Of a stretch of DNA of 64,000 bases, positions 35,271 through 64,000 are shown in pieces; position 1 is the first letter of the stretch, and each line of letters opens with the position of its first letter. Origin of the DNA: Candidatus Aenigmatarchaeota archaeon (GTDB lineage: Archaea > Aenigmatarchaeota > Aenigmatarchaeia > CG10238-14 > SpSt-28); assembly GCA_032249395.1 (NCBI GenBank), contig JAVVFY010000001.1, positions 825-64,824 of the forward strand, given 5' to 3'. Both the position numbers and the translations under genes were made by a program. The notes beneath the pieces are model-generated. The model searched no databases and was not told the origin of the DNA. It worked only from the letters and a program-made list of their open reading frames with translations.

Positions 35271-36127
35271 CTATTTATCTTGTCTGTAAGCATAAAGGAA
35301 ACCAACTACTGTATGAGGATTTTTTGCGTATTTGTTGAAGGTATATATAGGTCTAGTAACTTTCACCTTGAATCCTGCTTTTAGTAGTTTTTTCATCAGA
35401 TTAATATAACCATAATGATATTCAATCATTATTTCTTTAAAAACTCTTAGATCCTTATTTGAGGCGTTTAGAATACTATTGTATTCACAACCTTCACAAT
35501 CCATCTTTAATATTGCATCTCTTAGTTTGAATCTTTTAATTATATCTCTCAATGTTGTAATCTTAACTTTTTTCCTTTCTTAAAATTCTTTAACTGTGCT
35601 CCAGGTGGGTTTTTATAATTTTTGTTAATGTAAATTAATCCTTTATTTCTTCCAATTGCTTCATTAAAAAGAGTAATCTTATTTTCTAATTTATTCATCT
35701 TAATATTTCAAGTAGCAATTCTATAGGAGAAAGGATAAGGTTCAAAAGCATAAACATGTTTTGCTCCATTCAATGCAAAATAGATTGAAGAATCCCCAGT
35801 ATATGCTCCTATATCCACAACTTCCTTTCCTCTCACCTTTAATATCTTATAATCTTGTTTTACAAATTGGCTCATATAAGAATATAGCATGTATAACGCA
35901 TGAACATTTGTAATATTAGGAAGATATAACCGTAGTAAGTGATTTTTCCATTTAAACTTAACAACATTTTTATGCGTAAATTTTAAGTTTACTTTTTTAA
36001 CTCTACGAAAAGTTAAAATTATCTCTGGTAAAAACCCAACAAATTTTCTAGCTATAATTAACAAAATAAGCCAAAAATAATCAAAAGAAGTTATATTCTT
36101 TCTCACATTTTTTATATATTCAAACAT
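35271..36127 (-). pseudogene. FkbM-family methyltransferase, disrupted (in-frame TGA plus a frameshift in a homopolymer)
   Basis: VVDIGAYTGDSSIYFALNGAKHVYAFEPYPFSYRIAT then TGA (35708-35710), continuing in frame as NIKMNKLENKITLFNEAIGRNKGLIYINKNY...KKGKK. A shift at the A6/T6 run (35578-35583) then gives VKITTLRDIIKRFKLRDAILKMDCEGCEYNSIL. Confidence 0.7.
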
Positions 36128-36162
36128 TGTTGTCTACCTAAAGGTTAATTTCCATAAAAACA

Positions 36163-36996
36163 TTAAAATCTATTTAAAGAACGTTCCCATATTATTTCAT
36201 ACTTATTTCTTTTTGCATCTATCGTTGCGCAAATCCTTGCTAGAATTTCTATAAAAATAACTATTAGAAGATTAAAAAAAGTTTTCAGCGAATGTTCTTT
36301 TCTTAGATACTCAAGAACTATTTTCAAAAGTAAGCTAATTTTCATGCTACTTGTTTCGAATTTATATCTTTCTTTTATTTGCAGATGGCCATTAAAGCTC
36401 CTTCTCCTTTGCCTAAAAAATTGAAGTAAGGTGTATGGTGTTTTGGTATATCCATAGGCTCTTGGTTCGTAAACAATTTTATATCCTGCTTTTCTTATTT
36501 TGTATTCTATAAAAACTTCATCGGCTGAAACTAAAGGAAAATCTTTGAAAATTTTTCTGAATAGCATTATTTCTGTTCCTTTTGGTTGATGTAAACAAAG
36601 TAAATGATGCAAATCCCAAATGATTTTTGAAAATTTGTATATTTTACTATTTTTATCAGCTATAGGTCTACCAACTACCGCACCGATTGTAGGATCTTTT
36701 AAATGAGAAAGTAGGTATTGAAGAAAATTTTTTCTTATTCTTATATCAGAAGTTAACAAGAGGACTAGAGATGTATTTATATGTTTTAATCCAATTTTTA
36801 TTGCATAGGATTTACCTTTTCTTTTTCTTTCTTTTATGACAACAATTTTCCTTGATTTAGGCAATTTCACTTCGTTAGGAGTGACGATAATGATTCGCTG
36901 AATATTTTTAGAGGGTTTATCTTTTAGAAGCGTATTAACAAGAGCAGTTAATCTTCTCTTTTCGAGAAAACTTGGTATTAAGACAGAAATTTTCAT
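36163..36996 (-). CDS. Glycosyltransferase family 2
   Basis: MKISVLIPSFLEKRRLTALVNTL...IIIVTPNE...KGKSYAIKIGL, the GT-A N-terminal pattern, with a C-terminal membrane-associated tail. Confidence 0.8.
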   Translation of the reverse strand: MKISVLIPSFLEKRRLTALVNTLLKDKPSKNIQRIIIVTPNEVKLPKSRKIVVIKERKRKGKSYAIKIGLKHINTSLVLLLTSDIRIRKNFLQYLLSHLKDPTIGAVVGRPIADKNSKIYKFSKIIWDLHHLLCLHQPKGTEIMLFRKIFKDFPLVSADEVFIEYKIRKAGYKIVYEPRAYGYTKTPYTLLQFFRQRRRSFNGHLQIKERYKFETSSMKISLLLKIVLEYLRKEHSLKTFFNLLIVIFIEILARICATIDAKRNKYEIIWERSLNRF

Positions 36997-37031
36997 AAAT
37001 TATTTATTTTTATTTTGTGATTAATATTAGT

Positions 37032-37862
37032 ATGGAAGGGATATTTCCATATTTCAAATTGAGAAGAAAAGAAGATGAATATGCTTTTCTTTATAAATCA
37101 AAAATTTTGAGAGAGAGCGAAAAGGCTTTCTCTAAAATGTATTTTTATCTTTTTCTGTATCCTTTTATTGAAGTAAGAAAGATTAAACCATCAAATAATT
37201 TGTCTATTTTAAAATTTGATGTGTGGGAAGAATCTTCTTTACGAGAGTCTAAAATAAGACATTTACCTTTTCTCATAAAAAAAATTTTCAATCCTAAAGA
37301 GATTTACTTTGTTGATATAGATAGGGAATTAGTAAAAATGGCAAGAAAAAATATTAAGTTTTTTGGTTTTAGAAAAGCTTTTGTAAAAAATGGAGACATT
37401 AAGAATCTTCCGTTTCCTGATGAAAAGTTTGATATAGTTATAGATTTTAGCACAACAGATCATTTGCCTTTTAAAGATTTGAAAAAAACAATAAAAGAAG
37501 TTTATAGAGTATTAAAGGAAGATGGAATATACTTGATTTATCATTTGAATTCCGAATATTTTAACATACAAAGATGGAATTATAGGTACAAGTCAGTTAA
37601 AATTGCTAACCTTACATTGCCCTCATTCCCTAGGAGTCGAAAGAGCGTAGAAAATGTGTTAAGGAGAAACGGATTTTTCATTCATAAGAAAGGATACACT
37701 TTCCCCTTTTATTTTGATAATGGTCTATCTATTTATTGGACACTCCTTTTAAATAATTTTTTTAGTTTACCGCCTTTTTTTCTTCATTCATTTTTCAATT
37801 TTCCAACCCTAAACTTGTTTTTTTATATAGTGGCAATTAAAAGATTAAATGATAGAGTTTAA
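37032..37862 (+). CDS. SAM-dependent methyltransferase-like protein (Methyltransf_11-like) with a degenerate motif I
   Basis: IYFVDIDRELVKMARKNI...FDIVIDFSTTDHLPFKDLKKTIKEVYRVLKEDGIYLI. The usual GxGxG motif is not evident (ILKFDVWEES). Confidence 0.55.
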   Translation: MEGIFPYFKLRRKEDEYAFLYKSKILRESEKAFSKMYFYLFLYPFIEVRKIKPSNNLSILKFDVWEESSLRESKIRHLPFLIKKIFNPKEIYFVDIDRELVKMARKNIKFFGFRKAFVKNGDIKNLPFPDEKFDIVIDFSTTDHLPFKDLKKTIKEVYRVLKEDGIYLIYHLNSEYFNIQRWNYRYKSVKIANLTLPSFPRSRKSVENVLRRNGFFIHKKGYTFPFYFDNGLSIYWTLLLNNFFSLPPFFLHSFFNFPTLNLFFYIVAIKRLNDRV

Positions 37863-37883
37863 TTTGTTTACCATAATTTATGT

Positions 37884-38984
37884 ATGAAAACCAGCAAAAA
37901 CAAAATCCTGATATTGAATGTAGAAGCGAGCAATGTACTACCATTTACATGGTATTACAGAAGGAAGGGATATATTGTTATTGGTGGTAGTAATTTAGCA
38001 ATTCCCTCGATTTTTTTTTCAAAGTCGCTTGCCTATAGGATATATATACCTTATTCAAACATAGGAAAAATAGAGGTTCAAGAAAGAGGTAAAGAAAGAA
38101 CTTTTATAAGTAAAATTAAAAAGGTTTGTGAAAAGTATGGAATATCATTAGTTTTGAGTTTTTATGAGAATACAACCAAGCCGCTTATTAAATATAAAAA
38201 GGAGTTAAAAATTAAGGATGTTTACCCCTCATATAAATCTTACCTTACATTATATGACAAAAACATTTTAAAGAAGCATTTGGAAAGCGAAAATTTTAAG
38301 TCTTTCTATGTGCCTAAATCCTACGAGAAGATAATTAAATTTCCATGTATTATTAAACCTAATATAGGATGTGGTGGCGAATATGTTAGAGTATGCACAA
38401 ACTTTTCTGAACTTAAAAAATACTCTAGAATGATTAGATTAGCTAGAAAAAAGCCAATAATAGAAGAGTATATACCATTTCAAGATGGAATAGCAATGAA
38501 TTTACTGATTGATAAAAAGTTTGAGATAAAAAGGGCTGTAGTAAGAGAAGTAGTTTCACGTAATAAGTTAATAAATGTTATTAATGAGTTAGGGGGGTTT
38601 TTTAAGAAAATAAAATACTTTGGATTAGCATCTCCTCAGTTTCTTATTAAGGATGGTAAATTATACTTGATAGAGATTAATCCCAGACTTACTTACGTTC
38701 CGTTTGGTATAGATTTTGGTGTAAATTTTCCTGAAAGTTTTCATGAGGCAATCGTAGAAAACAAGAATATAGAAGAAAAATTTGTTTTTATACCTAAAAA
38801 TTATCCACGCGGGAAGATTTTATATTTGTGGAGAATTTATAAAGGCACGTATAAAGAAATCTCACCAATTTTTCTACAATGTTTTACGCACTTTAAATGG
38901 GAAATTGAAAACAAGATTAGATCTCTAGTGTCTCCAGAACATAGAAAATGGCTAAAAATTTTTCACCCCAAGCTAAAATTATAG
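37884..38984 (+). CDS. ATP-grasp domain protein
   Basis: CIIKPNIGCGGEYVRVC...IIEEYIPF...LYLIEINPRL. Confidence 0.6.
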   Translation: MKTSKNKILILNVEASNVLPFTWYYRRKGYIVIGGSNLAIPSIFFSKSLAYRIYIPYSNIGKIEVQERGKERTFISKIKKVCEKYGISLVLSFYENTTKPLIKYKKELKIKDVYPSYKSYLTLYDKNILKKHLESENFKSFYVPKSYEKIIKFPCIIKPNIGCGGEYVRVCTNFSELKKYSRMIRLARKKPIIEEYIPFQDGIAMNLLIDKKFEIKRAVVREVVSRNKLINVINELGGFFKKIKYFGLASPQFLIKDGKLYLIEINPRLTYVPFGIDFGVNFPESFHEAIVENKNIEEKFVFIPKNYPRGKILYLWRIYKGTYKEISPIFLQCFTHFKWEIENKIRSLVSPEHRKWLKIFHPKLKL

Positions 38985-39034
38985 AATAAAAACCCAAAAC
39001 CAGGGTATCCAAAAATTATTGGCGAGGGCTGATA

Positions 39035-39809
39035 ATGTTAATTATAGGGCTTGGATGGTCTCCAATAATTAACGATACAAGATTGTTAATCAGAACTATT
39101 AAAAGTTTTATCTCCGAGCCAAAAAGACCTAAGCAAAAGGGAAGGAAACCAAAAAAGCTTAAGGAATACTTAAGCTTGATAGTTGCTAAGGAAGCTAGGA
39201 AAGCGTTGCTTAGATATGCAGAATCTAGTTTATAGAATTAGTATGCAATGAAAGGGTTCCTAAATCAACGATAGCTTATTGGGAAAGCTCGGTTTGATTC
39301 TAGCTTAATAGAAAGAATTGTTATGGCTTTAGGAAGAAAGGTCAAGCAGTTGCTTGGATATATCTCTTCAATCCTAGATTCAACGAAGTTTACAAGCTGA
39401 AATAAAAGTTTGGTTGAATTTCATTTGCTAATTAGGAAAGCTGCAAATACAGTTTATCCAGTACCAATAGCTTTTGGCTCAAGCTTTCTAGCTCCATTAA
39501 GAGCTACCGCATGGTACGATAATAACATCATACTTAAGGCAATGGTCAAAGCAGGCTATTTACCTCTAGTAAAACCAAACAAAGTAAGAGGTAGAAAGAA
39601 CTTACATGAGAATTACTTACTTATTTTATAATGTTTTATAATGAATTTTTAGGCACGCTTCACCCAACCGAAAACTTTATAAAGCATAAATCTAAAATTA
39701 CATTATGAATGTAATTGAAAGATTGTTCCTAAGATTGGTGAAAAGCCTTGAAAATATTAGAAAGCCAATGCGTACATGGATCAGTCCTTCCGAGGAACCA
39801 AAGATGTAG
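39035..39809 (+). mobile_element. Degraded DDE transposase / IS remnant (IS4/IS5-like)
   Basis: Fragments lie in three frames separated by stops: ...KRPKQKGRKPKKLKEYLSLIVAKEA..., ERVPKSTIAYWE, ILDSTKFTS*, VEFHLLIRK...AWYDNNIILKAMVKAGYLPLVKPNKVRGRK and NVIERLFLRLVKSLENIRK. These are D, D and E-region-like motifs. I could not identify terminal inverted repeats. Confidence 0.5.
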
Positions 39810-39886
39810 TTTTTTATCTCTTTAATTTAAGAGAGACATTAAGTAAGTGATTAATTTAGTTATTTGTAAACGTGTAGATATAAGAT

Positions 39887-40815: not shown

Positions 40816-41889
40816 ATGGAAAAAGTTATTTTTGATCTATTATCAACTTTCCAGTTTTTCAAATATCTGTTAGGTTATAACCTTTTTGTAAAGCTTGGAT
40901 GGCCTAAAATTTTGCCTTCTTTCTTAACATTCTCTGTTAACAATTACTGCAATCAACTTTGTAAAACTTGCAACATATGGAAGAATAATCCAATTGAAGA
41001 AAAGAAAAAAGAATTGAAATTAAACGAAATAGAAAGAATTTTTTCACAATTTCCTAAAATTTTCTGGCTTACTATTACTGGTGGAGAACCTTTTCTTCGT
41101 AGAGATTTAGTAGAAATAGTAAAAATAGCTTATGAAAAAAGCAAAGTTAATGTATTAACTATAACTACAAATGGTTCATTGCCAGATATAATAGAGAAAG
41201 ATGTAAAAGAAATTCTCATGAAGTGTAAAAATCTCACAATAATAGTCAATGTTTCAATTGATGGTGATAGAGAATTACACGACAAAATAAGAGGTATTAA
41301 AGGAAGTTTTGACAAAGCTGTTGAAACAATTGAAAAATTAAAGAAAATAAAAAGTCGAAGATTGATAGTAGGAATAAACAGTGTAATCTCAATTTTTAAT
41401 GTTGGTAAATTATACAATTTACTGAATGTTATTAGAAAACTTTCTCCAGATTCTTTTGCTTTTTGTGTAGCTCAAAACCGTGAAAAACTTTTCAATCTAG
41501 ATTTAAATATTTCCCCTTCTGTTAGCATAATAAGGAAAAACCTTTTATATTTAGTTAGATATTCCTTAGAAAAAAGAAAAGGCGTAATAGGCACGATAAA
41601 GAATTTTCTAAGATTAAGGTTTTACCGATATATTTTAAATCCAAGTTTAATGAATAATAAGCCAAATTTTGAAGGTATAGCAACGGTTTACCTTCTAAGC
41701 GACGGTAGATTAACTTTTAGCGAGATTTCTCTTCTTGAAGTAGGAAATTTAAGATACCATAAGTTTACTCTTCCAAAGCTGCTCTTTTCCAAAATAGCTA
41801 ATAAATACAGAAAATACGTAAATTCTGTTGAATATAAAAAGAGAATGATGGAAAATCCATTTATTGTCAATCAACTAATAAGTTTCTAG
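40816..41889 (+). CDS. Radical SAM protein
   Basis: NNYCNQLCKTCNIW (CxxxCxxC) and ITGGEPFLRRD. Confidence 0.75.
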   Translation: MEKVIFDLLSTFQFFKYLLGYNLFVKLGWPKILPSFLTFSVNNYCNQLCKTCNIWKNNPIEEKKKELKLNEIERIFSQFPKIFWLTITGGEPFLRRDLVEIVKIAYEKSKVNVLTITTNGSLPDIIEKDVKEILMKCKNLTIIVNVSIDGDRELHDKIRGIKGSFDKAVETIEKLKKIKSRRLIVGINSVISIFNVGKLYNLLNVIRKLSPDSFAFCVAQNREKLFNLDLNISPSVSIIRKNLLYLVRYSLEKRKGVIGTIKNFLRLRFYRYILNPSLMNNKPNFEGIATVYLLSDGRLTFSEISLLEVGNLRYHKFTLPKLLFSKIANKYRKYVNSVEYKKRMMENPFIVNQLISF

Positions 41890-41930: not shown

Positions 41931-42629
41931 ATGAACAGACAATGGTTGTTCGTTAGCATTGGTTTATTTCTTCTAATAGTAGCTGTAGTAGCCTTCCTTT
42001 CAACTCGACAACCATCTTCTTTACAACCCTATTTTATCATTACATCACTATCTTCCAAGCCAACTTTGTTAGGTACTTACATAAAAAATCCTGATATAAT
42101 TCATAGTGCTGCAGGTTTTCTTTCGTTAAGCGAAGGAGTGTCGCCAAACGATCTTCTTCCCACATCGTCAGATTGGAAAGGGACGGCCTTTGTAGGCTAT
42201 AGTATTAGAGAATTGGGAGGAAGAAATGGCGTTGCTATTATCCATCCTGTGACTTCAACAATTGGTAGATATATAGAACAAGAGACCTACTTACCATCAG
42301 GAAAATATAAACTAGTTTTTGGAATAGCAAATGTAGCTGATATATTTCCTCCTGACGTTCTACAAGCAGGCATTGGTGGTTTTGTTGGTGATTGTGCAGA
42401 CGTTGGCATAAAAGTAATAGTGACAGACTTAGAAAAAGGAAAGGACTACATTATTTTTGACAAAGTTATTAGAAATGGAAGGTGGTACGATTATTCAGTT
42501 GATTTATCCTCCTACTTTTCGAATAAGAGAATTAAAGTAAGAGCAGAAAGCTACGCAGCAGATAAAGGATGCGGACTCTGGAACGGTGAGTGGGCAGCGG
42601 TTGATTATATAGACATTCAACCTTATTAG
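41931..42629 (+). CDS. Signal-anchored extracytoplasmic protein, unknown function
   Basis: N-terminal TM helix MNRQWLFVSIGLFLLIVAVVAFL. By eye it is richer in G, A, V and D and poorer in Lys than its neighbours. Confidence 0.5.
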   Translation: MNRQWLFVSIGLFLLIVAVVAFLSTRQPSSLQPYFIITSLSSKPTLLGTYIKNPDIIHSAAGFLSLSEGVSPNDLLPTSSDWKGTAFVGYSIRELGGRNGVAIIHPVTSTIGRYIEQETYLPSGKYKLVFGIANVADIFPPDVLQAGIGGFVGDCADVGIKVIVTDLEKGKDYIIFDKVIRNGRWYDYSVDLSSYFSNKRIKVRAESYAADKGCGLWNGEWAAVDYIDIQPY

Positions 42630-42745: not shown

Positions 42746-43871
42746 ATGAAAAGAAAAGTAGTGATTTCAGGGTGGTACGGAATTCCAAATATGGGTGCTG
42801 AAGCAATTTTACAACAAACTATATTTTTTAAAAAACTACTTCCAGGAAATTACGGTATTCTCATGGGATCCCGAATACACTATGAGATTTCATCATGTCA
42901 AAAGTATTTCACACTTTTCTCCTATAGAAGTTATAAGAGAAATAAAAACTTCAGATACATTTGTTGTAGGAGGAGAATTAATTGATGATTCAGGCGGAGG
43001 ATTAACTTTTCGGTTGAGTAAACCGTTCATTTCAAAAATACTAGGTAAGAAAGTAATAATTTCTGCAGTTTCTGCTAAGCCTATAAAATTTGAGGTTAGA
43101 AAATTTTTGCTTCGGAAGATACTTAGTAAATTTGAATTAATAACACTTCGTGACAAATTTTCCTACTTATATTTTAAGAAGTTAGGATTAAAAAATATTC
43201 ACTTAGTTTCAGACCCAGCTGCTCTTATTAAATCAGCTCCAACTAGCGATATTGAAAGAATATTTAAAAAATATGAAATTAAGAAAAATAAGCGAATTAT
43301 TTCTGTTTGTTTGCACCCCCAATTTCAACAAAAAAGAGGATGGTCTGTTAGAAAAATTTATAATGAGGAGATATTACTAGAAGCTTTGCCAGAAGCTTTT
43401 GATAATTTAATTGATAAAGGTTTTCAATTGATTTTTATTCCTACACAAATTTCTCGTGTAGGAGATGATAGGATTCTAGCATATAAGATACGTAAAAAAA
43501 TGAAGTATAAAGATAGTTTTAAAATAATTGAAGAGTTGTATTCTCCTGAGGAGATTAAAGGAATAATAAAACAAAGCGAGTTGCTTTTAAGTATGAAGTT
43601 TCATCCATTAGTATTTGCTATTTCCGAAGGTATCCCAACAATAGCTATAACTTGCGAAAATCTATCCAGAGTTAAAAATTTTCATAAGGAGATGAACTTA
43701 GATCGATTTACACTTAATTTAGATGAGTTAACATCGAAAATGATAATAAAAAAAGTAGAAGATCTAGTTTTGTTTAAAAGCAAAATTAAAAGTATTATAC
43801 AACTAAATGCAGAAAAATTGAAAAAAAGAGCACAAAAGAATTTTAAGTTAATCGAGAAGTATATTGCTTGA
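42746..43871 (+). pseudogene. Polysaccharide pyruvyl transferase (CsaB-like), frameshifted near the 5' end
   Basis: The N-terminus MKRKVVISGWYGIPNMGAEAILQQTIFFKK is in one frame. The rest (...EITVFSWDPEYT...FVVGGELIDDSGG...KFHPLVFAISEGIPTIAI) is in another. The switch falls at the T6A6 run near 42832-42845. Confidence 0.7.
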
Positions 43872-55688: not shown

Positions 55689-56426
55689 ATGAATAGGAAT
55701 AAGTTACTTATAATCGCCTTTTTGCTATTCTTTGTAATTATTGGTATTGTATTTTTCCTTACAGAAACTTCTAAAATAAAAACAGTACATCCTAACCTAA
55801 TAGCTTGGTATAAATTTGATGAAGGGAAAGGCACTAAAGTAAGGGACTACTCTGGATATAGAAATGATGGAGCTATTTATGGAGGTGCTTCTTGGGTTAA
55901 AGATACACCATTTGGTACCGGATACGCTTTGTATTTTAATGGAATAGATGCTATGGTACAAATTCCTGATAACCCTATACTTAATAATTTAGAAGAGATA
56001 ACCGTTACTGTATGGATTAAAGCTGAAGATTTGCAATATGGCGCTTCCATTGTTGATAAAGGTTGGTATAACCCTAGAATATGGTATGATTCTCCTTTCA
56101 ACAGATTTATGTTCCAATTGAGAGATATTCAAGAAGAGAGAGGTTTTGGTTGGTCTGACGACTCTTTTTCTAAATGCTATAAAAAATGGTGTTTCTTGGC
56201 TGCCACTTACTCTTCTAGTGAAAACAAAGTTAGACTATACATAAATGGAGAGTTGGATAAAGAGTTTGAATGGAATGGTAAACCATTAGTTTCAAGAGCT
56301 GGAGAGTCTTTAAAAATAGGTTTTCAGGATAAATACTTCAAAGGAATTATTAGTGATTTAAGGATATACAATAAGGCTTTGAGCAACCAAGAGATACTAA
56401 ATGTCATGAGAGGTCAAATAATTTAA
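55689..56426 (+). CDS. Signal-anchored LamG (concanavalin-A-like lectin/glucanase) domain protein
   Basis: LIAWYKFDEGKGTKVRDYSGYRNDGAIYGGASWV...ALYFNGIDAMVQIPD...ITVTVWIKA...RLYINGEL...FKGIISDLRIYNKALSNQEI. Confidence 0.75.
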   Translation: MNRNKLLIIAFLLFFVIIGIVFFLTETSKIKTVHPNLIAWYKFDEGKGTKVRDYSGYRNDGAIYGGASWVKDTPFGTGYALYFNGIDAMVQIPDNPILNNLEEITVTVWIKAEDLQYGASIVDKGWYNPRIWYDSPFNRFMFQLRDIQEERGFGWSDDSFSKCYKKWCFLAATYSSSENKVRLYINGELDKEFEWNGKPLVSRAGESLKIGFQDKYFKGIISDLRIYNKALSNQEILNVMRGQII

Positions 56427-56493
56427 AAGTAATTAATTTTAGTTTTTCGAGTTTCAGTAAAATAATTTAAAGAGTTAATATAAAAACATTTTA

Positions 56494-57396
56494 ATGAAAA
56501 GACGAATGTTGAAGCAAAAATCTTTATTAACTTTATTAATATACTTTATTCCACTTCTTTTTATATTCATTTTTATTTTTAGCATTGCAGTCATTAGCTC
56601 AATCTCAAAGAATTGTGAAGAAAACGTTATTTCTTATTACATAAAGAAAAAGGAGTTTATCATTTTTGATGAAAACTTTTATGAAGAAGAAAAAGCTGAT
56701 ATAACTTATCGATGGTTATCTGGTAACGCAACAATTACTTTAGTTATACCATACGACCAGGTTATTAAACTTCATTTTATTATTTGGTCTTACAATATAC
56801 CTAGAGATGTAAAGATTTATCTTGGTGATTTTTTATTAACGGAGCTCAATCTTACGCAAAATAGAACAGAATGCTCTTCGCCCTTTATTTATTTAAAGAA
56901 GGGGGTATACAAACTAAGGTTTATTGTTTCTGGAGAATGTCAATTTCCAGCTTTAATAGAAGGCAGTGAAGATATTAGATGTTTAAGCATAGGTTTAGGG
57001 GACTTCAAAAAAGAAGAAACATATAATTTAATGTTAAAGATAGATTCTCCCGGATGGTACGATATTGAAAATTATTATGGAAAGGATATGAGATGGATGA
57101 GTGAAGTAGGTACAATAAACTTAATAAATATGGAAAAAGGTGACTTTGTTTTGGAATTTTTTGCTTTCAGTTTTTACAAAGATAGAGAAGTTAGGCTTTA
57201 CGTAGATGAAAATTTAATAAAAACTTTTAAAGTTACAACAAATGGATCGACGGAAAATATAAAAATTAGTTTAAATCCAGGCTTTCATAAAATTAGATTT
57301 GTTGCTGATGGATGCGACATTCCATCTAAACTCGGAATTAGTGATGATCCTAGATGTTTAAGCATAGCTGTAGTTAGACCGATAATTTACGAGTAG
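56494..57396 (+). CDS. Signal-anchored protein with two RCLS repeat domains (paralog of the 45461..49714 C-terminus)
   Basis: An N-terminal TM helix is followed by two repeats (starting 56665 and 57046): FYEEEKADITYRWLSGNATI...CQFPALIEGSEDIRCLSIGL and PGWYDIENYYGKDMRWMSEVGTI...CDIPSKLGISDDPRCLSIAV. Confidence 0.7.
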   Translation: MKRRMLKQKSLLTLLIYFIPLLFIFIFIFSIAVISSISKNCEENVISYYIKKKEFIIFDENFYEEEKADITYRWLSGNATITLVIPYDQVIKLHFIIWSYNIPRDVKIYLGDFLLTELNLTQNRTECSSPFIYLKKGVYKLRFIVSGECQFPALIEGSEDIRCLSIGLGDFKKEETYNLMLKIDSPGWYDIENYYGKDMRWMSEVGTINLINMEKGDFVLEFFAFSFYKDREVRLYVDENLIKTFKVTTNGSTENIKISLNPGFHKIRFVADGCDIPSKLGISDDPRCLSIAVVRPIIYE

Positions 57397-57431
57397 TTAA
57401 TTTTTAATTGTTCCATCTTAAATGTATTTAA

Positions 57432-59072
57432 ATGATGAAAAGTTTAGTTAGTTTAATATGTTTATTCTTGTCGGTTGTTTTCCTTCTATTTCTTTTTTCT
57501 AAAAGTTTCACAACATTCGATTCTTATTTTCACATGCAAGTTGCAAAACATTATAGAGAAAACTGGTTTTCAACTTTACTACAAAAAGTTGGAATGGTCG
57601 ATTTATCTACTTATCCTCCATTGGCACATCAGCTATTGGCAATAATTCCTCTTCCACTCGAAATAAATTATTCTCTCCTAACAATTATTTTTACTATTTT
57701 GCTTTCTTTCTACTCAGCAAAATTCATTACTTCTTACTTAAAAACAAAAAACAATTTCTGGTTAGTTTATTTTTTTGTTTTATTTTCTCCAGCTATTTTA
57801 ATAACAATTTTTACTTTTGGTCAGCTTCCAACTTTAATCGGCTTGGCTTTTTCTTTCATTTCTTTATACTATTTCTCCGAATTCTTGAATATGAAAAGAA
57901 GAGACCTTTTACTATTAGCTTCGCTTTCCCTCGTTTTAGTAGCTTATACTAACATTTTAATTTTTCTAATTTTAGCAATTTTTTATTTTTTTATTTTTTT
58001 GTTCTTCTTGAGATTTATAATCAGAAATTTGAAGAGTATTTTTTCCTATTTTTTTCTCTCCGCATTTCTCATTTTTTTGATTTATTACCCATTTTTCTTT
58101 AAATCTGTGGTTCAAAAAGAAATTCCTCACTGGTCTAGATATCCTTTTGAGGATAATTTGAATGCCCAAAGATTTATAAAAATGTATGGGATAGCTTTCC
58201 CAGTCTCCTTAATTCTTCCATTTATGATTATTTCTTTAAACAAAAAAATAAGGAAAAGAGCTTTAGAAATTTACATTTTAGCTATAATCTTTCTCATTCT
58301 TAGCTTAGGAACAACAACACCTTTAATAAAATTTTTTGGGAGCCACGCTTATTGGTTAACTTATGAAAGGTTTTTGTTAACATCATCAATAATATTTTTA
58401 TCACTTTGTGCCGCTCTTTTACCAAAATTTGAGATAATTTTCTTCAATAGAAAGATTCCTGTTCACGTCTTTTTAACAATACCTCTTTTGATATTTATTT
58501 CAACTAACCTTCTTCTACATGAGCACGCTCACTTTTTTGGAGACACGATAAAAAGAAGTGACAAAAATATAAGGGATCAATACACTAAATTCGCCCTTGA
58601 TTACCTTAACAATATTGAAGGAAATTATAGATATCAGACTTTTGGTTATGATAGACCTATAGGTGAAATTTATTTCTATTCAAAATTACCAACTTTAGAT
58701 ACAGATTATTTTACTGGCAGGACAATAAGTTGGATAAGAGAGTTAGGAATAGAAGAAATAGATCAAATTAAAGATGAGACCATGTTAGACGCTTTCTTAA
58801 ATCACGCAACTAATTATTCAATAAAATATGTAATCACTTTTGACGATTTCTATTTTAATTATTTTCAATCTAAGGGGTGGGAGTTGGTAAATCAAAATAT
58901 TTTTGAAGGGAAGAAGGTTGCAATTTTTGTAAATCCTGAAAATGTAGAAGAGGTCAAATTTAGTAAAGAAAGCTATGGATTTATAAATTACTTAAGGGGG
59001 ATACTACCCTTAGCTTTACTAACAACGTTTCTTATTATTGTTATAAAAACAAAAATTCAAAAATTAGAATGA
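57432..59072 (+). CDS. Polytopic membrane protein, possible GT-C-like transferase
   Basis: 546 aa with about 12 TM helices. FDSYFHMQVAKHYRENWFS...STYPPLAHQL follows TM1, and there is a C-terminal soluble domain plus a terminal TM helix. Confidence 0.45.
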   Translation: MMKSLVSLICLFLSVVFLLFLFSKSFTTFDSYFHMQVAKHYRENWFSTLLQKVGMVDLSTYPPLAHQLLAIIPLPLEINYSLLTIIFTILLSFYSAKFITSYLKTKNNFWLVYFFVLFSPAILITIFTFGQLPTLIGLAFSFISLYYFSEFLNMKRRDLLLLASLSLVLVAYTNILIFLILAIFYFFIFLFFLRFIIRNLKSIFSYFFLSAFLIFLIYYPFFFKSVVQKEIPHWSRYPFEDNLNAQRFIKMYGIAFPVSLILPFMIISLNKKIRKRALEIYILAIIFLILSLGTTTPLIKFFGSHAYWLTYERFLLTSSIIFLSLCAALLPKFEIIFFNRKIPVHVFLTIPLLIFISTNLLLHEHAHFFGDTIKRSDKNIRDQYTKFALDYLNNIEGNYRYQTFGYDRPIGEIYFYSKLPTLDTDYFTGRTISWIRELGIEEIDQIKDETMLDAFLNHATNYSIKYVITFDDFYFNYFQSKGWELVNQNIFEGKKVAIFVNPENVEEVKFSKESYGFINYLRGILPLALLTTFLIIVIKTKIQKLE

Positions 59073-60214
59073 AAGTTTGCTTCGTTTCTGCATATCCTCC
59101 ATCGAGAGGAAATTTGGCTGAATATGCCTATTTTTTAACAAAAGAATTAATAAGAGACGCTCGCATTTCTTCTTTGACTATTTTGGCAAATGGAGATTTT
59201 TTAAAAAGAGAAAGAAAAAGAAAACTTAAAATTATAAGATGTTGGAAGAATGATAGTTTATTAATCCCTCTGAAAATCTTAATAAATGTTTACAGAGAAA
59301 ATCCGGATGTAGTGCACTTTAACATTCATATGAGGAGTTGGGGAAGGAAAAAATTGGTTAATTTCTTTGCACATCTCACACCATTTCTAGTAAAATTTTT
59401 TCTTAGGAAAAAAGTGGTTGTTACCTTGCATAACATATTAGAGAGCGTTAACTTAAAAGAAATGGGAATAAGTAACGATTTTTTAACTCTTTTAGGAGCG
59501 AAGATTTCAACGAAGTTTCTACTTTTTAGCGATAGGTTAGTTGTGTTGTTAAAAAGATATAAAAGGATAATTAGAAATAGATACAAAAAAAACGTTGTGT
59601 ATATTCCGCATGGGACACTTGGTAAAAAGATAAGCAATATAAATTTTAATGGTTATAAAATATTAACTTTCGGATTCTGGTCGCCATATAAAAACTTACC
59701 CCTTCTAATTGAGGTTTTTAATGAGTTAAAGAAAAAATTCAAAAAAATAGAATTGATAGTTGCGGGAGGACCTCATCCTAACTATCCTACATATCTAACA
59801 ACGATAAAAGAGAAGTATAAACTTATGAAAGGTATAAAATTCCTCGGATATATTCCTAATAGAAAGTTGTCTAGCCTTTTTTCATCTAGCTCGTTAATAG
59901 TTTTACCTTATCTTGTATCCACTGGAACTAGTGGGGTAGTTCATTTGGCTGTCTCTTATGGTAAGCCAATTATAGTTTCTAAACTGCCTGACATAGAGGC
60001 TACTGTTAGAGAAGAAGGCTATAAAATAATATTCGTTAGAAAAAACGATAAAGTAGCACTAAGAAAAGCTATCGAGAGGCTACTTAAAAACAAAAAACTG
60101 TATTTGAGAATAGCAGAAAGGAATTTAGAGTTAAGCGAAAAATACTCTTTTTCAAAAATATCAAAAATGTATGTAAATCTTTATAGAAAACTGATTCCGA
60201 CGAATAATAAATAA
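59069..60214 (+). CDS. Glycosyltransferase family 4 (GT-B, Glycos_transf_1)
   Basis: MKVCFVSAYPPSRGNLAEY...ELIVAGGPHPNYP...LPYLVSTGTSGVVHLAVSYGKPIIVSKLPD. Confidence 0.8.
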   Translation: MKVCFVSAYPPSRGNLAEYAYFLTKELIRDARISSLTILANGDFLKRERKRKLKIIRCWKNDSLLIPLKILINVYRENPDVVHFNIHMRSWGRKKLVNFFAHLTPFLVKFFLRKKVVVTLHNILESVNLKEMGISNDFLTLLGAKISTKFLLFSDRLVVLLKRYKRIIRNRYKKNVVYIPHGTLGKKISNINFNGYKILTFGFWSPYKNLPLLIEVFNELKKKFKKIELIVAGGPHPNYPTYLTTIKEKYKLMKGIKFLGYIPNRKLSSLFSSSSLIVLPYLVSTGTSGVVHLAVSYGKPIIVSKLPDIEATVREEGYKIIFVRKNDKVALRKAIERLLKNKKLYLRIAERNLELSEKYSFSKISKMYVNLYRKLIPTNNK

Positions 60215-60251: not shown

Positions 60252-61604
60252 ATGAAAAGATTTAAAAAGGCTTTTTTAGTGAAGTTTGAACATATTTTTC
60301 CATTGATTCTTTTCATCTTGATAAGGCCTTTCTTTATTACTCCTGTTCCTTCGGATGAAACAATTTACATAAACATGGCAAAAGCTTTGAAAGAAGGTTT
60401 ATTGCCCTATAAAGATTTTTTTTATGCCCATCCACCATTTCAACTTTTGTTGCTATTTCCAGCAGCTCAAACAGGGAATTTTTTTCTGACAAAAGTTTAC
60501 ATTTCAATAATAGGTTTGGCTTGCGTATTCCTAACTTATCTTATAGCAAAAAAGATTTTTGATGAAAGAACAGCTTTTATAAGCATGCTATTTTTCCTTC
60601 TTTTCCCAGGATTTATAATTTTTGGAAATTTGGCAATGGGAACTTTCGAAGCTTTATTCTTCTTTTTATTGTCTTTTTACTTTCTTCTTAAAGAGAGGTT
60701 ATTAATTTCAGCTATTTTTATGTCTATCTCTATTTTCACTCGTTATTTAGTTTTGTTTCTAATCCCCCTTGTTTTAATATATCTATTTTTGTATAATAGA
60801 AAAATTTTGAAAGGATTTCTAATCTATTTTGCTTTCGCACTATTTGGCATTTTTTTAGTTATTTACTATTTCTTTGGATTTAAATTTATTAGAGACACGA
60901 TCATTTACCATTTTTGGAGCAACATAAAACTATCATTAGAATTAGCAGATTGGATTTGGCAATATCTTTCTCTTGGCTTCTTTACGGAATTCATTTCTTT
61001 TATTTCCTTAGCCTTCGGATACTTAAAAAAAGATTATAAACTTATAATTTTCTCAGCTTATCCTATTATATATGATTTTGTAATTCTCCTCACATTCAAG
61101 CAAGTAATTTATCATTATTTTGCCTTTGTTCTACCTTTTCTTTCAATTGCTTTTGGGAGAACATTTTCATCATCGAGATTTTTAGAGTTAAAAATCTTCT
61201 TAATTTTAATTTTATTTATTTCGTTATTTTCAAACTTCCAAAGCTTGATATATTATTTTGATAAAAGCAAAAACTATTTTTTTGACGAGCTTGTAAGTTA
61301 TACTTTACAACTTACCGAAAAAAACGACTTAATATTTGGGGAGCCAAGGAGTATAAATTATATATCTTTTGTTACCGATAGAAAAATCGTAAATAGCTAC
61401 TTTGATTCAGACTTGAAATATTTAAGTTTTGAAGGTTTCGAGAAGGTTGTTGAAGAAGTAAAAAAAAGTAAACCAAAGATAATGGTTGTTGATGCGAATT
61501 ATTATAAAACTCTTTATAATTATTTTGAAGGGAATTATGAAATAATAAAGGAATGGTATGTTCCAAGTTACTGCAATTTAATTTTAATGAAAAGCTTGAA
61601 ATAA
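60252..61604 (+). CDS. Polytopic membrane glycosyltransferase, GT-C (PMT_2-like)
   Basis: PVPSDETIYINMAKALKEGLLPYKDFFYAHPP follows TM1, then about 11 TM helices and a short C-terminal soluble domain. Confidence 0.65.
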   Translation: MKRFKKAFLVKFEHIFPLILFILIRPFFITPVPSDETIYINMAKALKEGLLPYKDFFYAHPPFQLLLLFPAAQTGNFFLTKVYISIIGLACVFLTYLIAKKIFDERTAFISMLFFLLFPGFIIFGNLAMGTFEALFFFLLSFYFLLKERLLISAIFMSISIFTRYLVLFLIPLVLIYLFLYNRKILKGFLIYFAFALFGIFLVIYYFFGFKFIRDTIIYHFWSNIKLSLELADWIWQYLSLGFFTEFISFISLAFGYLKKDYKLIIFSAYPIIYDFVILLTFKQVIYHYFAFVLPFLSIAFGRTFSSSRFLELKIFLILILFISLFSNFQSLIYYFDKSKNYFFDELVSYTLQLTEKNDLIFGEPRSINYISFVTDRKIVNSYFDSDLKYLSFEGFEKVVEEVKKSKPKIMVVDANYYKTLYNYFEGNYEIIKEWYVPSYCNLILMKSLK

Positions 61605-61628
61605 TTTAACTATAAATTAAATAAAAAT

Positions 61629-62618
61629 ATGAAGAAAGCTAAAAAAGGTCTTGACTTTAAATTTTTTGCTTCTCTAGCTTTTATATTAATAATTTTTATA
61701 ATTCCAAATTTGTATTCTTTTATTATTCAGACCTTTCTTTCTAGGCTGATGGTTTTAGTTCTCCTTCCATCTTGGTTTTTGAGTATTTATCTATTTACAT
61801 CGAAAAGAGTTTTCGGTTTTAAAGTAAGAAAAGAGACTAAATATAGAGCCTTTTTCTACTCTATTTTCATAACTTTTATAGTATTCTATTTTACATTTAT
61901 TTCTAAAAATTTGACATTTATACTTGCTCTAACATCTCCAACACCTACAGCACCTACATGTGATTGCTCTTATTGTGGCTTTTATTCTAGTTGCTCTTCT
62001 TGCAATGAGTGGCAAGATTGTATTCAACAAACTTGTTTAGCTAGCGGTTGCACAGCTAACACAAACTGCTATAATTGCGAGTGGAAATCTTGTTCAAACG
62101 TAAAACCAAAAGTTTATATTTTAACTCCATTCATCGTAAGTGGAGGAAACTTAGGCATATCAGTAGTTTTTGAGTGCAGGGAATGGAGTTCTTCAGCCAA
62201 AAACTTAACATTATCTTTAAAAATAGACAACCAGGATTGGAAAGAATGCTTCTTGAACAATAAAGGTTTAATGACAGATTTTGGATGGAGTAGCAATTGT
62301 GACAATATGATGTCCGGAAATTGTGGTTCTAACAATCAATGGAGTTGCGATTCTCAAGCTTATTGTAAACATCAAAACTACAATTTATGGGTAAAATCCA
62401 ATTTTAATAATCATTATGTAAATGTAACGTTCATTTGCAAGCTTCCTTATTTAAGTGGGGGTTCTCATTCATTAACAGTAATAGCAAAAGTTTATGGAAG
62501 CGAGATAACCTTAAAACCATCAATAATGACTTTTAGAGTTTTGGAAGCAAGCGAAACAAAAATATTTGAAGTCCTTTTATTACCAATAAAAATCTTAAGA
62601 AATCTTTTACCTTTCTAG
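61629..62618 (+). CDS. Membrane-anchored cysteine-rich extracytoplasmic protein
   Basis: Three N-terminal TM helices, then PTPTAPTCDCSYCGFYSSCSSCNEWQDCIQQTCLASGCTANTNCYNCEWKSCSN and further Cys pairs. Confidence 0.5.
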   Translation: MKKAKKGLDFKFFASLAFILIIFIIPNLYSFIIQTFLSRLMVLVLLPSWFLSIYLFTSKRVFGFKVRKETKYRAFFYSIFITFIVFYFTFISKNLTFILALTSPTPTAPTCDCSYCGFYSSCSSCNEWQDCIQQTCLASGCTANTNCYNCEWKSCSNVKPKVYILTPFIVSGGNLGISVVFECREWSSSAKNLTLSLKIDNQDWKECFLNNKGLMTDFGWSSNCDNMMSGNCGSNNQWSCDSQAYCKHQNYNLWVKSNFNNHYVNVTFICKLPYLSGGSHSLTVIAKVYGSEITLKPSIMTFRVLEASETKIFEVLLLPIKILRNLLPF

Positions 62619-62650
62619 AACTTTTTATTTGTTAAAAGCAAATTTAATCA

Positions 62651-63595
62651 ATGAAAAGAAATCTAATATTATTGGTCTTCTTATCTCTCTTTCTTTTTCA
62701 TATTGTTAGGGCCCAAGTAAATTTACAACCAGCTACTGTTACTTTTGTTGTCAATTCAATCGAACTTTATGCTGTAGATGATTATACAGGAGGTAAGCAA
62801 TATATTGGTCTTTTTGGAGATAAAACAAGAATTGACATTTTATGGGATGTAAGATACAATCCAGAAAGTTTAGATCCTATAAATGTTACTTGTTGGCTAA
62901 ATTGTAAAAACAATACTGACGTAACTCAATGTTATGGTTTACAAAACTGTAGCTACCAAGGAAAAACGGGACCAGCAGCTTGCACAATTTTAAACCCAAA
63001 CTATAATTATTCTGTTATAAACAATATAACTTGCAAATTCTTCAACCCAAATTATCCAGCGCTTGATTATAGACTTCCAGACGGAACTTATCCTCAAAGA
63101 GTTTTTTACCCAGTTAGATATACAGTTTCAGTAAGCGGAGGAACTTATTTAGTTGGAAGAACAATTAGCTTGCCAATAAATTTTGTTTCCTATAGCTTTT
63201 TGAATGGCAATTATACAGGGTTTGCCTATACTCAACCAACATCTTTCATTTCAATAGATAATAGTTATAATACGACAAGTGTTCTAAAATATTCTCAAAT
63301 AGATACAGTTTATCCTAAAATAACAGTAATTTATGCGAGCGGAAAAACAACACTTTACATAAACACAACAGCAAATGAACTACCTTCTTGCAACTCCGTT
63401 AATGATTGCTCAGATATAGTTACTCAAGCTTACCAAATAAAAGCTTGCATTCAAAATCAATGTCAATACATTTTCACAACAGAAATCGGTTCTGCTTACT
63501 TAAGTCTACCAGAATACGGGACGAAAGAATTAATAATACTTCTTTTCGGAGCTACGCTTATTTTTATTGCTGTTTTAAAACTGAGAAATCTTTAA
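62651..63595 (+). CDS. Secreted, C-terminally anchored Cys-rich putative surface glycoprotein
   Basis: Signal peptide MKRNLILLVFLSLFLFHIVRA|Q and a C-terminal TM helix ELIILLFGATLIFIAVLKL. It has 8 N-x-S/T sequons (NVT, NNT, NCS, NYS, NIT, NYT, NTT, NTT). Confidence 0.55.
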   Translation: MKRNLILLVFLSLFLFHIVRAQVNLQPATVTFVVNSIELYAVDDYTGGKQYIGLFGDKTRIDILWDVRYNPESLDPINVTCWLNCKNNTDVTQCYGLQNCSYQGKTGPAACTILNPNYNYSVINNITCKFFNPNYPALDYRLPDGTYPQRVFYPVRYTVSVSGGTYLVGRTISLPINFVSYSFLNGNYTGFAYTQPTSFISIDNSYNTTSVLKYSQIDTVYPKITVIYASGKTTLYINTTANELPSCNSVNDCSDIVTQAYQIKACIQNQCQYIFTTEIGSAYLSLPEYGTKELIILLFGATLIFIAVLKLRNL

Positions 63596-63603
63596 AATTT
63601 TCG

Positions 63604-64000
63604 CTAATAATTCAAGCAAAACTTTCTGATTTTCAAAAGTTCGAGAAACATTTTTATTGGAGTAATAAAACTTATTTTACTCTTTCCTTTTTTCCTTTCT
63701 TCATAAATTACAGGATAGTTGCAAATCTTAAAACCAGATTTTTTTGCTTTGTAGAGAAATTCAACATCCCAGGCCCAAGAATCTGCTTTAAAATCAATTT
63801 TTTCCTTAACTTCTCTTCTAAAAGCCCTAAATGTTGATTGAGTTTCAATTGTTAAGCCAAAGAGCAAAAACACAAGAAATCTAAAAGATAGACCGAGCAA
63901 CTTTCTGTAGAAAGCATCTTTTCTCAATCTTCTAGTATTTACTATATCACATTCTTTTAATTTCTCAACTAAAGCAGGAATTTTTTCAACTGGATGTTGC
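63604..64000 (-). CDS. Glycosyltransferase family 2 (dolichyl-phosphate sugar synthase-like), C-terminal part; the gene continues past position 64000
   Basis: The frame is open to the window edge: QHPVEKIPALVEKLKECDIVNTRRLRKDAFYRKLLG...AFRREVKEKIDFKADSWAWDVEFLYKAKKSGFKICNYPVIYEERKKGKSKIS. The tracked Met is an internal TTG. Confidence 0.7.
   Translation of the reverse strand, partial: QHPVEKIPALVEKLKECDIVNTRRLRKDAFYRKLLGLSFRFLVFLLFGLTIETQSTFRAFRREVKEKIDFKADSWAWDVEFLYKAKKSGFKICNYPVIYEERKKGKSKISFITPIKMFLELLKIRKFCLNY

Follow-up and report, generated by a model that had tools for sequence, protein, structure and literature searches.

What would an archaeon assemble with five membrane-embedded glycosyltransferases of the C fold class (GT-C) encoded in one gene block, and does that block belong to the core of its lineage or has it been added to it? 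The question is raised by a locus in a Candidatus Aenigmatarchaeota archaeon (assembly G000; 752,806 bp in 25 contigs, 89.5% complete, ~31% GC). The window, meaning the whole 64,000-nucleotide stretch that was analysed (G000:C1:825-64824), contains all but the right end of an island spanning ~29.6 kb (window 35.3 kb to ~64.9 kb, 3.9% of the assembly), which finishes ~0.9 kb beyond the window end. An earlier note on this DNA had pointed to a surface-glycosylation island dense in GT-C genes, an observation that our analysis confirms. In our view the island is likely an accessory cluster of ~30 kb, with tRNA genes at both sides, whose products assemble a surface glycan largely on the outside of the cytoplasmic membrane. 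Attachment to other cells is the way of life of DPANN archaea, and the building of their surfaces is largely unknown; the closest named genomes for the island genes are metagenome-assembled genomes (MAGs) of Candidatus Aenigmatarchaeota and Nanohaloarchaea.

The argument rests first on the five polytopic proteins of the island, which are referred to here by their length in amino acids (aa) and listed with their acidic loop motifs or conserved residues:

45461..49714, + strand: 1417-aa GT-C, a PMT_2-type membrane domain (WNEDTRL) with seven ~115-aa repeats, here called RCLS repeats
51971..53617, + strand: 548-aa PMT_2-type GT-C (YVDEVVF; PMT_2 43-47 bits, cut-off 26.1)
53619..55430, - strand: 603-aa GT-C of an uncharacterised family (GDGGDGY), assigned with AlphaFold and Foldseek; some homologues carry a precomputed DUF6311 match
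57432..59072, + strand: 546-aa GT-C of the PTPS_related/DUF6541 family (conserved D30 and H34)
60252..61604, + strand: 450-aa PMT_2-type GT-C (PSDETIY)

Against PMT_2 (cut-off 26.1), the 1417-aa protein scores 25.9 bits with hmmscan, while the genome search gave 31.8 bits; it also matches NF047440, a putative glycosyltransferase family. Taken alone, the 450-aa protein reaches just 19.5-25 bits; within its family of 857 relatives, a PMT_2 match was found in 56 of 68 sampled diverse homologues (best E 4e-21), and the protein is a paralogue of the 548-aa GT-C (26% identity across 308 residues). Direct searches with the 603-aa and 546-aa proteins gave no Pfam, NCBIfam or PDB sequence match, and a Pfam scan of members of the 603-aa family was without a match at E <= 0.01. 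Among the homologues of the 546-aa protein, PTPS_related (PF10131) was matched in 8 of 31 and DUF6541 in 3 of 31. PF10131 is listed among the members of the GT-C clan, with its function unknown (PMC7801869).

Structural comparison resolves the identity of these two families. AlphaFold produced helix-rich models of both the 603-aa protein (alignment of 18 homologues; pLDDT 84.4, pTM 0.86) and the 546-aa protein (alignment of 31 homologues; pLDDT 92.5, pTM 0.93), and in a Foldseek search of the PDB every match with E <= 6.6e-3 was a GT-C enzyme. These matches (E 1e-7 to 1e-3, TM-score 0.4-0.54) comprise STT3 of the yeast and human oligosaccharyltransferases (OST), AglB, PglB, DPY19, AftD, AftA, ArnT, ALG9 and ALG12. 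Furthermore, hhalign connected both families to the PMT_2-type family, with a probability of 97.4% for the 603-aa family (E 9e-12 over 440 columns) and 97.0% for the 546-aa family (E 1e-10 over 207 columns), the acidic residues of the first loop being aligned in both cases. These residues are conserved within the family alignments: D74 and D77 (GDGGDGY) are invariant in the 603-aa family, and D30 (FDSYFH) and D35 (PSDETIY) are near-invariant in the 546-aa and 450-aa families, respectively. A simple hydropathy scan found 8-12 hydrophobic segments per polytopic protein, set against the ~8-13 transmembrane (TM) helices expected of a GT-C module.

All five polytopic proteins are GT-C-fold glycosyltransferases, and the HMM and structure searches did not yield the transporters or unrelated families that would have refuted the earlier note. 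This bears out what had been proposed from the sequence, through four routes: the PMT_2 hidden Markov model (HMM), the homologue families, AlphaFold with Foldseek, and hhalign. The accompanying idea of a shared layout, in which an acidic loop follows the first TM helix, stands insofar as all five motifs quoted for it lie just after that helix, but one of them, FGDEGFH, comes from a partial GT-C gene at 1-750 and not from an island gene. The whole genome encodes eight GT-C proteins, namely the five of the island, AglB, the partial PMT_2 protein at the contig start and one PMT_2 protein on contig C5. That five of the eight genes should fall inside 16.1 kb has P ~5e-5 under random placement (scan-statistic simulation).

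Enzymes of this type require a sugar donor, and candidates for its supply lie at the right edge of the island:

63604..64281, - strand: 225-aa polyprenyl-phosphate sugar synthase-like glycosyltransferase of family 2 (GT2); the window ends at 64000, so that the C-terminal part lies inside
~64523-64897: 124-aa ArnE/F-like membrane protein, next to the GT2 gene

The best PDB match of this right-edge GT2 is the Pyrococcus furiosus dolichyl-phosphate-mannose (Dol-P-Man) synthase 5mlz (E 1e-22, residues 1-215), then ArnC and GtrB; its NCBIfam matches are to ArnC, PgfS, AglJ and dolichyl-phosphate hexose transferase, the last two at E 1e-17 to 1e-18. With 78.8 bits it remains far under the equivalog cut-off of 529 of the ArnC model, which corresponds to family-level membership. 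The 124-aa protein matches ArnF over 113 of its 124 residues (E 1e-18, 67.8 bits, cut-off 99) and ArnE with 43.9 bits, while its EamA score of 31.6 bits is over the cut-off of 28.2. A cis-prenyltransferase is present in the genome. At the level of family similarity, the right-edge GT2, the ArnE/F-like flippase candidate and the ArnT/PMT_2-type GT-Cs would thus make up a three-component layout. From the adjoining synthase-like GT2 and the ArnE/F-like protein we infer that the five GT-Cs use a polyprenyl-(di)phosphate-linked sugar donor. The cluster fits the extracytoplasmic, lipid-carrier-dependent glycosylation that had been suggested for it, with a donor synthase and a flippase candidate at its right edge.

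The remaining glycosyltransferases, together with genes that may tailor sugars, are as follows:

35271..36127, - strand: FkbM-family methyltransferase, fragmented (Methyltransf_21 on the C-terminal fragment)
36163..36996, - strand: GT2 glycosyltransferase (GT2a), weakly PgaC/NodC-like (Glycos_transf_2 42 bits; NCBIfam)
37017..37862, + strand: S-adenosylmethionine (SAM)-dependent methyltransferase, intact (Methyltransf_11 58.8 bits)
37884..38984, + strand: ATP-grasp ligase (ATP-grasp_3 35.4 bits)
38985..39886: ~900 bp without an intact open reading frame, one frame crossing four stops; no Pfam match and no second copy in the genome
39887..40813, + strand: NAD-dependent sugar epimerase/dehydratase of the SDR type (Epimerase 94.6 bits)
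40816..41889, + strand: radical SAM enzyme with a core like SPASM/twitch maturases (Radical_SAM 68 bits; SkfB E 9e-10; NCBIfam)
42746..43871, + strand: CsaB-like polysaccharide pyruvyl transferase, frameshifted (PS_pyruv_trans 129 bits; CsaB E 5e-35)
44119..45381, - strand: PaaK/F390-synthetase/CapK-type adenylate-forming ligase (NCBIfam E 1e-40 to 1e-31)
59069..60214, + strand: glycosyltransferase of family 4 (GT4, GT-B fold; Glycos_transf_1 74.7 bits)

The gene list of the earlier note is largely recovered here: two GT2 genes, GT4, the epimerase, the radical SAM enzyme, the ATP-grasp protein and the CapK-like ligase are present, but the pyruvyl transferase is frameshifted, and one of the two methyltransferases is intact and the other broken. 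The reading frame of the pyruvyl transferase changes at a T6A6 run, after the N-terminal 25-30 codons. Both the fragmentation of the FkbM gene and the length of the pyruvyl transferase tract are the same in independent assemblies from other samples (the latter tract being identical in the loci L105 and L106), and the breaks are therefore fixed in the consensus and not the error of one assembly. The only indel between independent assemblies of the island is a single base at 38959, where the ATP-grasp gene has an A5T6 run close to its 3' end; the products are 363 versus 366 aa long. The segment at 38985-39886 may be a decayed gene of unknown family; its interpretation as a decayed transposase was dropped, as it has neither a Pfam match nor a second copy in the genome.

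Proteins with secretion or anchoring signals complete the island:

41931..42629, + strand: 232-aa signal-anchored protein of unknown family (no Pfam match; one N-terminal TM helix; homologues in loci L006, L008 and L024)
49974..51974, + strand: secreted coiled coil with a WbsX/GH71/GH99-clan glycosidase-like domain
55689..56426, + strand: signal-anchored LamG/concanavalin-like lectin-fold protein (Laminin_G_3 70 bits)
56494..57396, + strand: signal-anchored protein with two RCLS repeats (BLAST to the repeats of the 1417-aa protein; alignment)
61629..62618, + strand: 329-aa membrane-anchored Cys-rich protein with 18 Cys and a TSPTPTAPT linker
62651..63595, + strand: secreted, C-terminally anchored, Cys-rich (10 Cys) and sequon-rich (8 sequons) protein

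The hydrolase domain scores 47.5 bits against WbsX (cut-off 25.1), 34.0 against GH71 (cut-off 34) and 21.5 against GH99 (cut-off 33), and aligns with OpGH99A in the PDB across 164 residues (E 3e-4); a clan member is thus present where a GH99-like hydrolase had been predicted, but GH99 itself stays under its Pfam cut-off. The start of the 548-aa GT-C gene overlaps the stop of the hydrolase gene at 51971. The predicted LamG protein was found as described. Likewise, the Cys-rich, sequon-rich surface proteins exist as two Cys-rich proteins, with Cys contents at the 97.7th and 99.6th percentiles, but the second alone is clearly rich in sequons (97th percentile). A 540-aa paralogue, 41% identical to the C-terminal half of the 329-aa protein, is encoded ~18 kb downstream (G000:C1:83209-84828).

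The RCLS repeat, with the consensus 'RW...C-x-IP...D-x-RCLS', is present seven times in the 1417-aa GT-C (47165-49711) and twice in the protein at 56494-57396. Five of the nine repeats close with an N-I/L-S/T sequon at the same aligned position, which suggests that the modules may themselves be N-glycosylated. A profile of the repeat searched against the PDB gave only insignificant matches, to a carbohydrate-binding module (CBM; E 0.56) and to a GH2 sugar-binding domain (E 0.82), and to call the repeats 'CBM-like' is a guess.

A model of how the island works can be proposed from these components. Inside the cell, the ArnC/Dol-P-Man-synthase-like GT2 would load a sugar on dolichyl phosphate, while GT4 and the second GT2 would use nucleotide sugars to build or prime an acceptor. 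The SDR epimerase, the radical SAM enzyme, the methyltransferase, the ATP-grasp protein and the PaaK/CapK-like ligase would tailor sugars, with the pyruvyl and FkbM transferases currently broken. The lipid-linked sugar would then be flipped by the small ArnE/F-like protein, after which the five GT-Cs, each with its own acidic loop behind the first TM helix, would transfer sugars, outside the membrane, to an acceptor that is either a protein or lipid-anchored. Finally, the WbsX/GH99-clan hydrolase, the LamG protein and the RCLS modules may bind or trim the product, and the adjoining Cys-rich proteins are candidate acceptors. Acceptor sites could be offered by these Cys-rich proteins, through the 8 sequons of the one and the TSPTPTAPT linker of the other, and by the N-I-S/T sites of the RCLS repeats; equally, the acceptor could be a lipid-anchored glycan, by analogy with mycobacterial lipoglycan assembly. 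The donor sugar and the order of the steps are proposals of the model, as is the biological role, be it host contact or surface variation: host attachment is plausible for a DPANN archaeon, and surface variation against viruses or a structural polymer is equally so.

Several observations weigh against the reading of the island as an accessory cluster for surface glycan assembly. The ArnC, ArnF and AglJ matches all fall under the NCBIfam equivalog cut-offs and so represent family-level similarity, as do all matches of the PaaK-like ligase to its models, and two tailoring genes are broken. No initiating phosphosugar transferase or Wzx was detected inside the island (PF02397 was not searched), the sole Glycos_transf_4 and Polysacc_synt matches of the genome being on contig C10; the island is therefore not a self-contained pathway. 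The only match to NTP_transferase, the sugar-nucleotide pyrophosphorylase type, in the genome (G000:C1:95828-96181) has an internal TAA, and the genome would thus have little capacity to supply activated sugars to so many glycosyltransferases. Neither the GC content at third codon positions (GC3) nor codon usage gives a signal of foreign origin. In addition, the relatives searched are MAGs with a completeness of 58-97%, so that absence has to be understood as 'not found in those searched'.

A second glycosylation cluster (G000:C10:1977-18396) contains GT4 and GT2 genes. It also carries the genome's sole AglH-type initiating transferase and sole Wzx-like flippase, and probably represents the basic N-glycan pathway that supplies AglB. 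The island would accordingly be an add-on to this basic pathway and not its replacement.

Whether the island is accessory can be judged from its distribution. The 546-aa family was found in none of eight genomes of the same genus (58-89% complete) and none of ten others of the same family, in one of 22 others of the same order, and in five of 370 genomes of the phylum, which belong to five different families. The 603-aa family was found in none of the 18 genomes of the family (eight of the genus plus ten) and in 2 of 22 of the order, and RCLS repeats were found in 0 of 8, 2 of 10 and 3 of 22 genomes at the three levels. The expectation that the block is accessory and not conserved among relatives was thereby upheld. 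Within the order, one relative (G040) has a similar island with a member of the 603-aa family, RCLS repeats and several PMT_2 genes. The number of PMT_2 matches per genome in the 40 relatives ranges from 0 to 12 (median 2), with at least five in 7 of the 40, several of those being clustered, and the large investment that the earlier note had seen in the GT-C complement is thus not unusual by the standards of the order.

A core set of genes recurs elsewhere. The repeat-bearing GT-C, the 546-aa GT-C and GT4 are found together in six loci (L006, L008, L021, L022, L024 and L109), often joined by a PMT_2 GT-C, on scattered contigs of Aenigmatarchaeota and Nanohaloarchaea. The 15-kb metagenome contig L008 encodes the 450-aa GT-C, GT4, the 546-aa GT-C, an RCLS protein, LamG, the 603-aa GT-C, the hydrolase, the repeat-bearing GT-C and the 232-aa protein, while L109 holds a 1417-aa GT-C, a 442-aa gene, a TSP3 domain-containing hydrolase, a DUF6311 GT-C, the 546-aa GT-C, GT4 and the 450-aa GT-C. 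L021 and L024 additionally contain GT2 (GT2a), radical SAM and PaaK-like genes. Partial versions also occur: L023 (Nanohaloarchaea) has both the repeat-bearing and the 546-aa GT-C with no match to GT4, and L110 has the 546-aa GT-C, GT4 and PMT_2 with no repeat-bearing GT-C. Homologues of the repeat-bearing GT-C adjoin the 546-aa GT-C gene in L021-L024 and share its locus in L006, L008 and L109; their lengths range from ~810 to 1417 aa, showing that the number of repeats varies.

The association of the 546-aa GT-C with GT4 extends beyond the archaea. In the island the two genes overlap, the GT4 gene starting over the stop of the 546-aa gene at 59069. Among 80 loci from species-representative genomes (archaea and mostly bacteria), a GT4 homologue lies within 300 bp of the 546-aa GT-C homologue and shares its strand in 45, and the bacterial loci with the pair belong to Chloroflexota, Acidobacteriota and Bacteroidota. 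On the evidence of this gene order, the two appear to form a conserved functional pair without a described function. In the bacterial loci L025-L100, the GT4 gene is usually directly upstream of the 546-aa GT-C homologue on the same strand. Our literature search found no paper on such a cluster in DPANN or Aenigmarchaeota, nor one through PF10131, DUF6311 or DUF6541.

Comparison with these loci also reveals a mosaic. Nucleotide identity between the island and L008 is 62% at 53.7-55.05 kb and 74% at 57.8-61.6 kb, whereas the tract 55100..57750 between them is 95.1% identical (97% in its central 2 kb), differing at 130 of 2,659 aligned positions. This 2.6-kb tract contains the 5' end of the 603-aa GT-C gene, an intergenic region, the LamG and RCLS protein genes and the 5' end of the 546-aa GT-C gene. 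Since the near-identity includes intergenic DNA, recent recombination accounts for it better than selection does, and on this alignment the tract indicates recombination between diverged lineages. L109 has other genes in place of the island's centre (49.9-55.1 kb).

Within its own population, the island is highly stable. At least four other samples yielded contigs, each spanning half of the island or more, that are 99.93-100% identical to it over the part covered, with the same right flank in those that reach the right end and the same left flank in one. The island is therefore not an assembly artefact. Moreover, the 130 differences in the recombination tract, set against less than 0.07% variation in the island's own population, make a chimeric assembly with that population unlikely.

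Tentatively, these patterns can be combined into a broader hypothesis, which we consider possible, although the balance of probability is against it. The core, consisting of the RCLS-fused PMT_2 GT-C, the PTPS-related GT-C, GT4 and a further PMT_2 GT-C, often with a DUF6311-like GT-C and a WbsX/GH99-clan hydrolase, might represent an uncharacterised extracytoplasmic pathway for a glycan or lipoglycan. Its GT-C/GT4 pair would be shared with Chloroflexota, Acidobacteriota and Bacteroidota, and in DPANN archaea the pathway would be exchanged by recombination and diversified, setting host or virus specificity at the cell surface.

How the island came to be where it is can be considered from its borders:

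34376..34462, - strand: tRNA gene, left border (ARAGORN)
34515-35222: AlaX-like editing protein between the left tRNA gene and the first island gene (tRNA_SAD and tRNA-synt_2c matches)
~65407-65480: tRNA-Val, right border

To the right, tRNA-Val is followed by a DNA-ligase fragment, HepT-like remnants, Mre11 and Rad50. The tRNA genes at both borders, the decayed toxin-antitoxin and ligase remnants beside them, the patchy distribution in the phylum and the recombination tract shared with L008 could all suggest a recent acquisition, in which a mobile element of foreign origin integrated at a tRNA gene. We nonetheless find this unlikely. Domain searches of the island genes detected no integrase, transposase or recombinase, and att-like flanking direct repeats were limited to chance matches of at most 15 bp in AT-rich DNA. 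Composition is inside the range of the genome: GC3 is 0.232 in the island versus 0.242, and 6.8% of equal-sized blocks deviate as much or more in synonymous codon usage, so that the comparison of GC and codon usage proposed in the earlier note was negative. Total GC is lower in the island (0.293 versus 0.323), which is consistent with the amino-acid content of membrane proteins. Furthermore, in a sister lineage of ~95% identity the same locus holds the right arm, from the 546-aa GT-C gene, where that lineage's contig starts, onward. The island is therefore resident in the species cluster and not a recent arrival. Of the overall interpretation offered previously, GT-C identity, the fit to a lipid carrier and non-conservation remain in place, whereas the proposed test of GC and codon usage was negative and the large investment is not unusual for the order.

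Conversely, residence in the species cluster and native composition might indicate that the block serves the whole lineage as a core envelope pathway and that its apparent absence from relatives is an artefact of incomplete, fragmented MAGs that have lost repeat-rich or strain-variable regions. Variable islands are often lost from MAGs, and the relatives are incomplete to the extent stated above; in addition, the island proteins of L008 and L109 are 59-75% identical to those studied here, resembling genus-level divergence of housekeeping proteins (Mre11, 70%). This explanation is also improbable. Three independent markers were found in none of the eight congeners, and two of them in none of the ten other genomes of the family, including G015 and G017, which are 94% complete in 4-7 contigs (RCLS repeats occur in 2 of the 10). 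A family found in just 5 of 370 genomes of the phylum is difficult to reconcile with a core function, and gene content differs between the loci that carry the block. In the congeners G006 and G008, the AlaX gene is directly followed by housekeeping genes that are on contig C2 in G000. The two flanks are on separate contigs in both genomes; gene order around the site is thus not conserved, and no empty-site comparison is possible. The 36-kb interval between AlaX and Mre11 in G015 was considered as a different island at the same site and rejected, as it consists of housekeeping genes. An accessory cluster that is resident in its species cluster and exchanged in parts by recombination remains our preferred interpretation.

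With regard to function, the secreted hydrolase, LamG and repeat proteins could instead bind or cut host surface glycans for feeding or entry, which would make the island a locus for attack or harvest and not for self-decoration. A WbsX/GH99-clan domain behind a signal and a coiled-coil stalk, beside a LamG lectin fold, would suit such a role, as would the weak likeness of the repeats to carbohydrate-binding modules and the small nucleotide-sugar capacity of the genome. However, biosynthetic genes make up most of the cluster (five GT-Cs, GT4, two GT2s including the donor synthase, and a flippase candidate). The repeat modules, moreover, form part of a transferase, and their likeness to carbohydrate-binding modules is not significant; we therefore judge this very unlikely. 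The reading of the polytopic proteins as transporters or unrelated membrane proteins, prompted by four 546-aa homologues named 'MFS family permease' in JGI and by the lack of direct Pfam matches for the 603-aa and 546-aa proteins, is contradicted and highly improbable, as MFS and other transporters appeared in the Foldseek searches solely at E > 0.1 with a TM-score of ~0.1, and as the GT-C matches, the PTPS_related hits and the hhalign results given above make those names wrong.

The other end of the window, from 1 to 35 kb, is occupied by housekeeping genes: AglB/STT3, SerRS, PheRS, a class Ib tRNA synthetase, primase, enolase, CDC48, SMC and a thymidylate-synthase-like protein. It bears out the AglB gene and the partial GT-C gene that had been placed there:

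1..750, - strand: N-terminal part (250 aa) of a PMT_2-type GT-C with a 526-aa frame in the contig, outside the island (PMT_2 37.8 bits; loop motif FGDEGFH)
780..2867, + strand: AglB/STT3 oligosaccharyltransferase, outside the island (STT3 96 bits, E 4e-27)

Two further features were observed in this region. The primase is a fused PriS-PriL, a single 485-aa protein with small- and large-subunit domains (6047-7504, - strand), and the CDC48/VCP-type AAA ATPase (23818-27570, - strand) contains an intein with a LAGLIDADG homing-endonuclease domain.

The island provides a concrete parts list for the assembly of an extracytoplasmic surface glycan in a 0.75-Mb genome, and its analysis links two unannotated membrane-protein families, the PTPS_related/DUF6541-like and the DUF6311-like, to a fold and a likely activity. 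The GT-C/GT4 pair is common to bacteria and archaea and hence amenable to study in tractable organisms, and, being patchy and mosaic in distribution, the island is a candidate for determining how surfaces differ between strains. As glycan islands of this sort and pathways with several GT-Cs have been described before, and relatives in the order also hold several GT-Cs, we regard the finding as useful and not surprising.

The closest parallels are the three-component systems ArnC/ArnE-F/ArnT (lipid A), GtrB/GtrA/Gtr-type (O-antigen) and CsbB/GtcA/YfhO (teichoic acid), in which a synthase works inside, a small flippase transfers the lipid-linked sugar and a GT-C acts outside. The island resembles them in having a synthase-like GT2 gene, a small flippase-like gene of 4-5 TM helices and ArnT/PMT_2-type GT-Cs in one cluster. 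It differs in that there are five GT-Cs of three families instead of one, as well as GT4, tailoring enzymes and secreted binding or hydrolysing proteins; in an archaeon, dolichol would serve as the lipid, and the matches of the island are all below equivalog cut-offs. In Haloferax volcanii, the external completion of the N-glycan involves the Dol-P-hexose synthases AglD and AglJ, the flippase AglR, the GT-C mannosyltransferase AglS, and AglB. Shared with this archaeal system are a Dol-P-hexose synthase-like GT2, a predicted extracytoplasmic GT-C function and AglB in the same genome, but here 33 kb separate AglB from the island, a different contig carries the initiating transferase and the Wzx-like flippase, there are five GT-Cs instead of one, and no match is at equivalog level.

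Mycobacterial assembly of lipomannan, lipoarabinomannan and arabinogalactan uses PimA/B (GT4), Ppm1 (GT2) and the GT-Cs PimE, MptA-C, EmbA-C and AftA-D. As would be the case in the island, several GT-Cs there act in series outside the membrane on polyprenyl-phosphate sugars after priming by GT4 inside; AftD, AftA and EmbB are among the fold matches of the island GT-Cs, and, like AftD, one island GT-C carries additional extracytoplasmic modules, which in AftD are of the sugar-binding type. Nevertheless, there is no orthology at the sequence level, the archaeon has no such wall, and the repeat module is a new domain with insignificant likeness to carbohydrate-binding modules. With flexible glycan islands and O-antigen or capsule loci, the island shares a patchy distribution, mosaic content between close lineages, a recombination tract and some broken tailoring genes; unlike them, it shows no compositional deviation, is at least 99.93% identical within its own population and is dominated by GT-Cs and not of the Wzx/Wzy type. 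Judged by the equivalog cut-offs, none of which is reached, the island does not appear to be an orthologue of any of these systems. What our analysis adds to the earlier note is the right-edge ArnC/Dol-P-Man-synthase-like GT2 with a putative ArnE/F-like flippase, a recurring core, a GT-C/GT4 pair extending into bacteria, a patchy distribution and a tract indicative of recombination.

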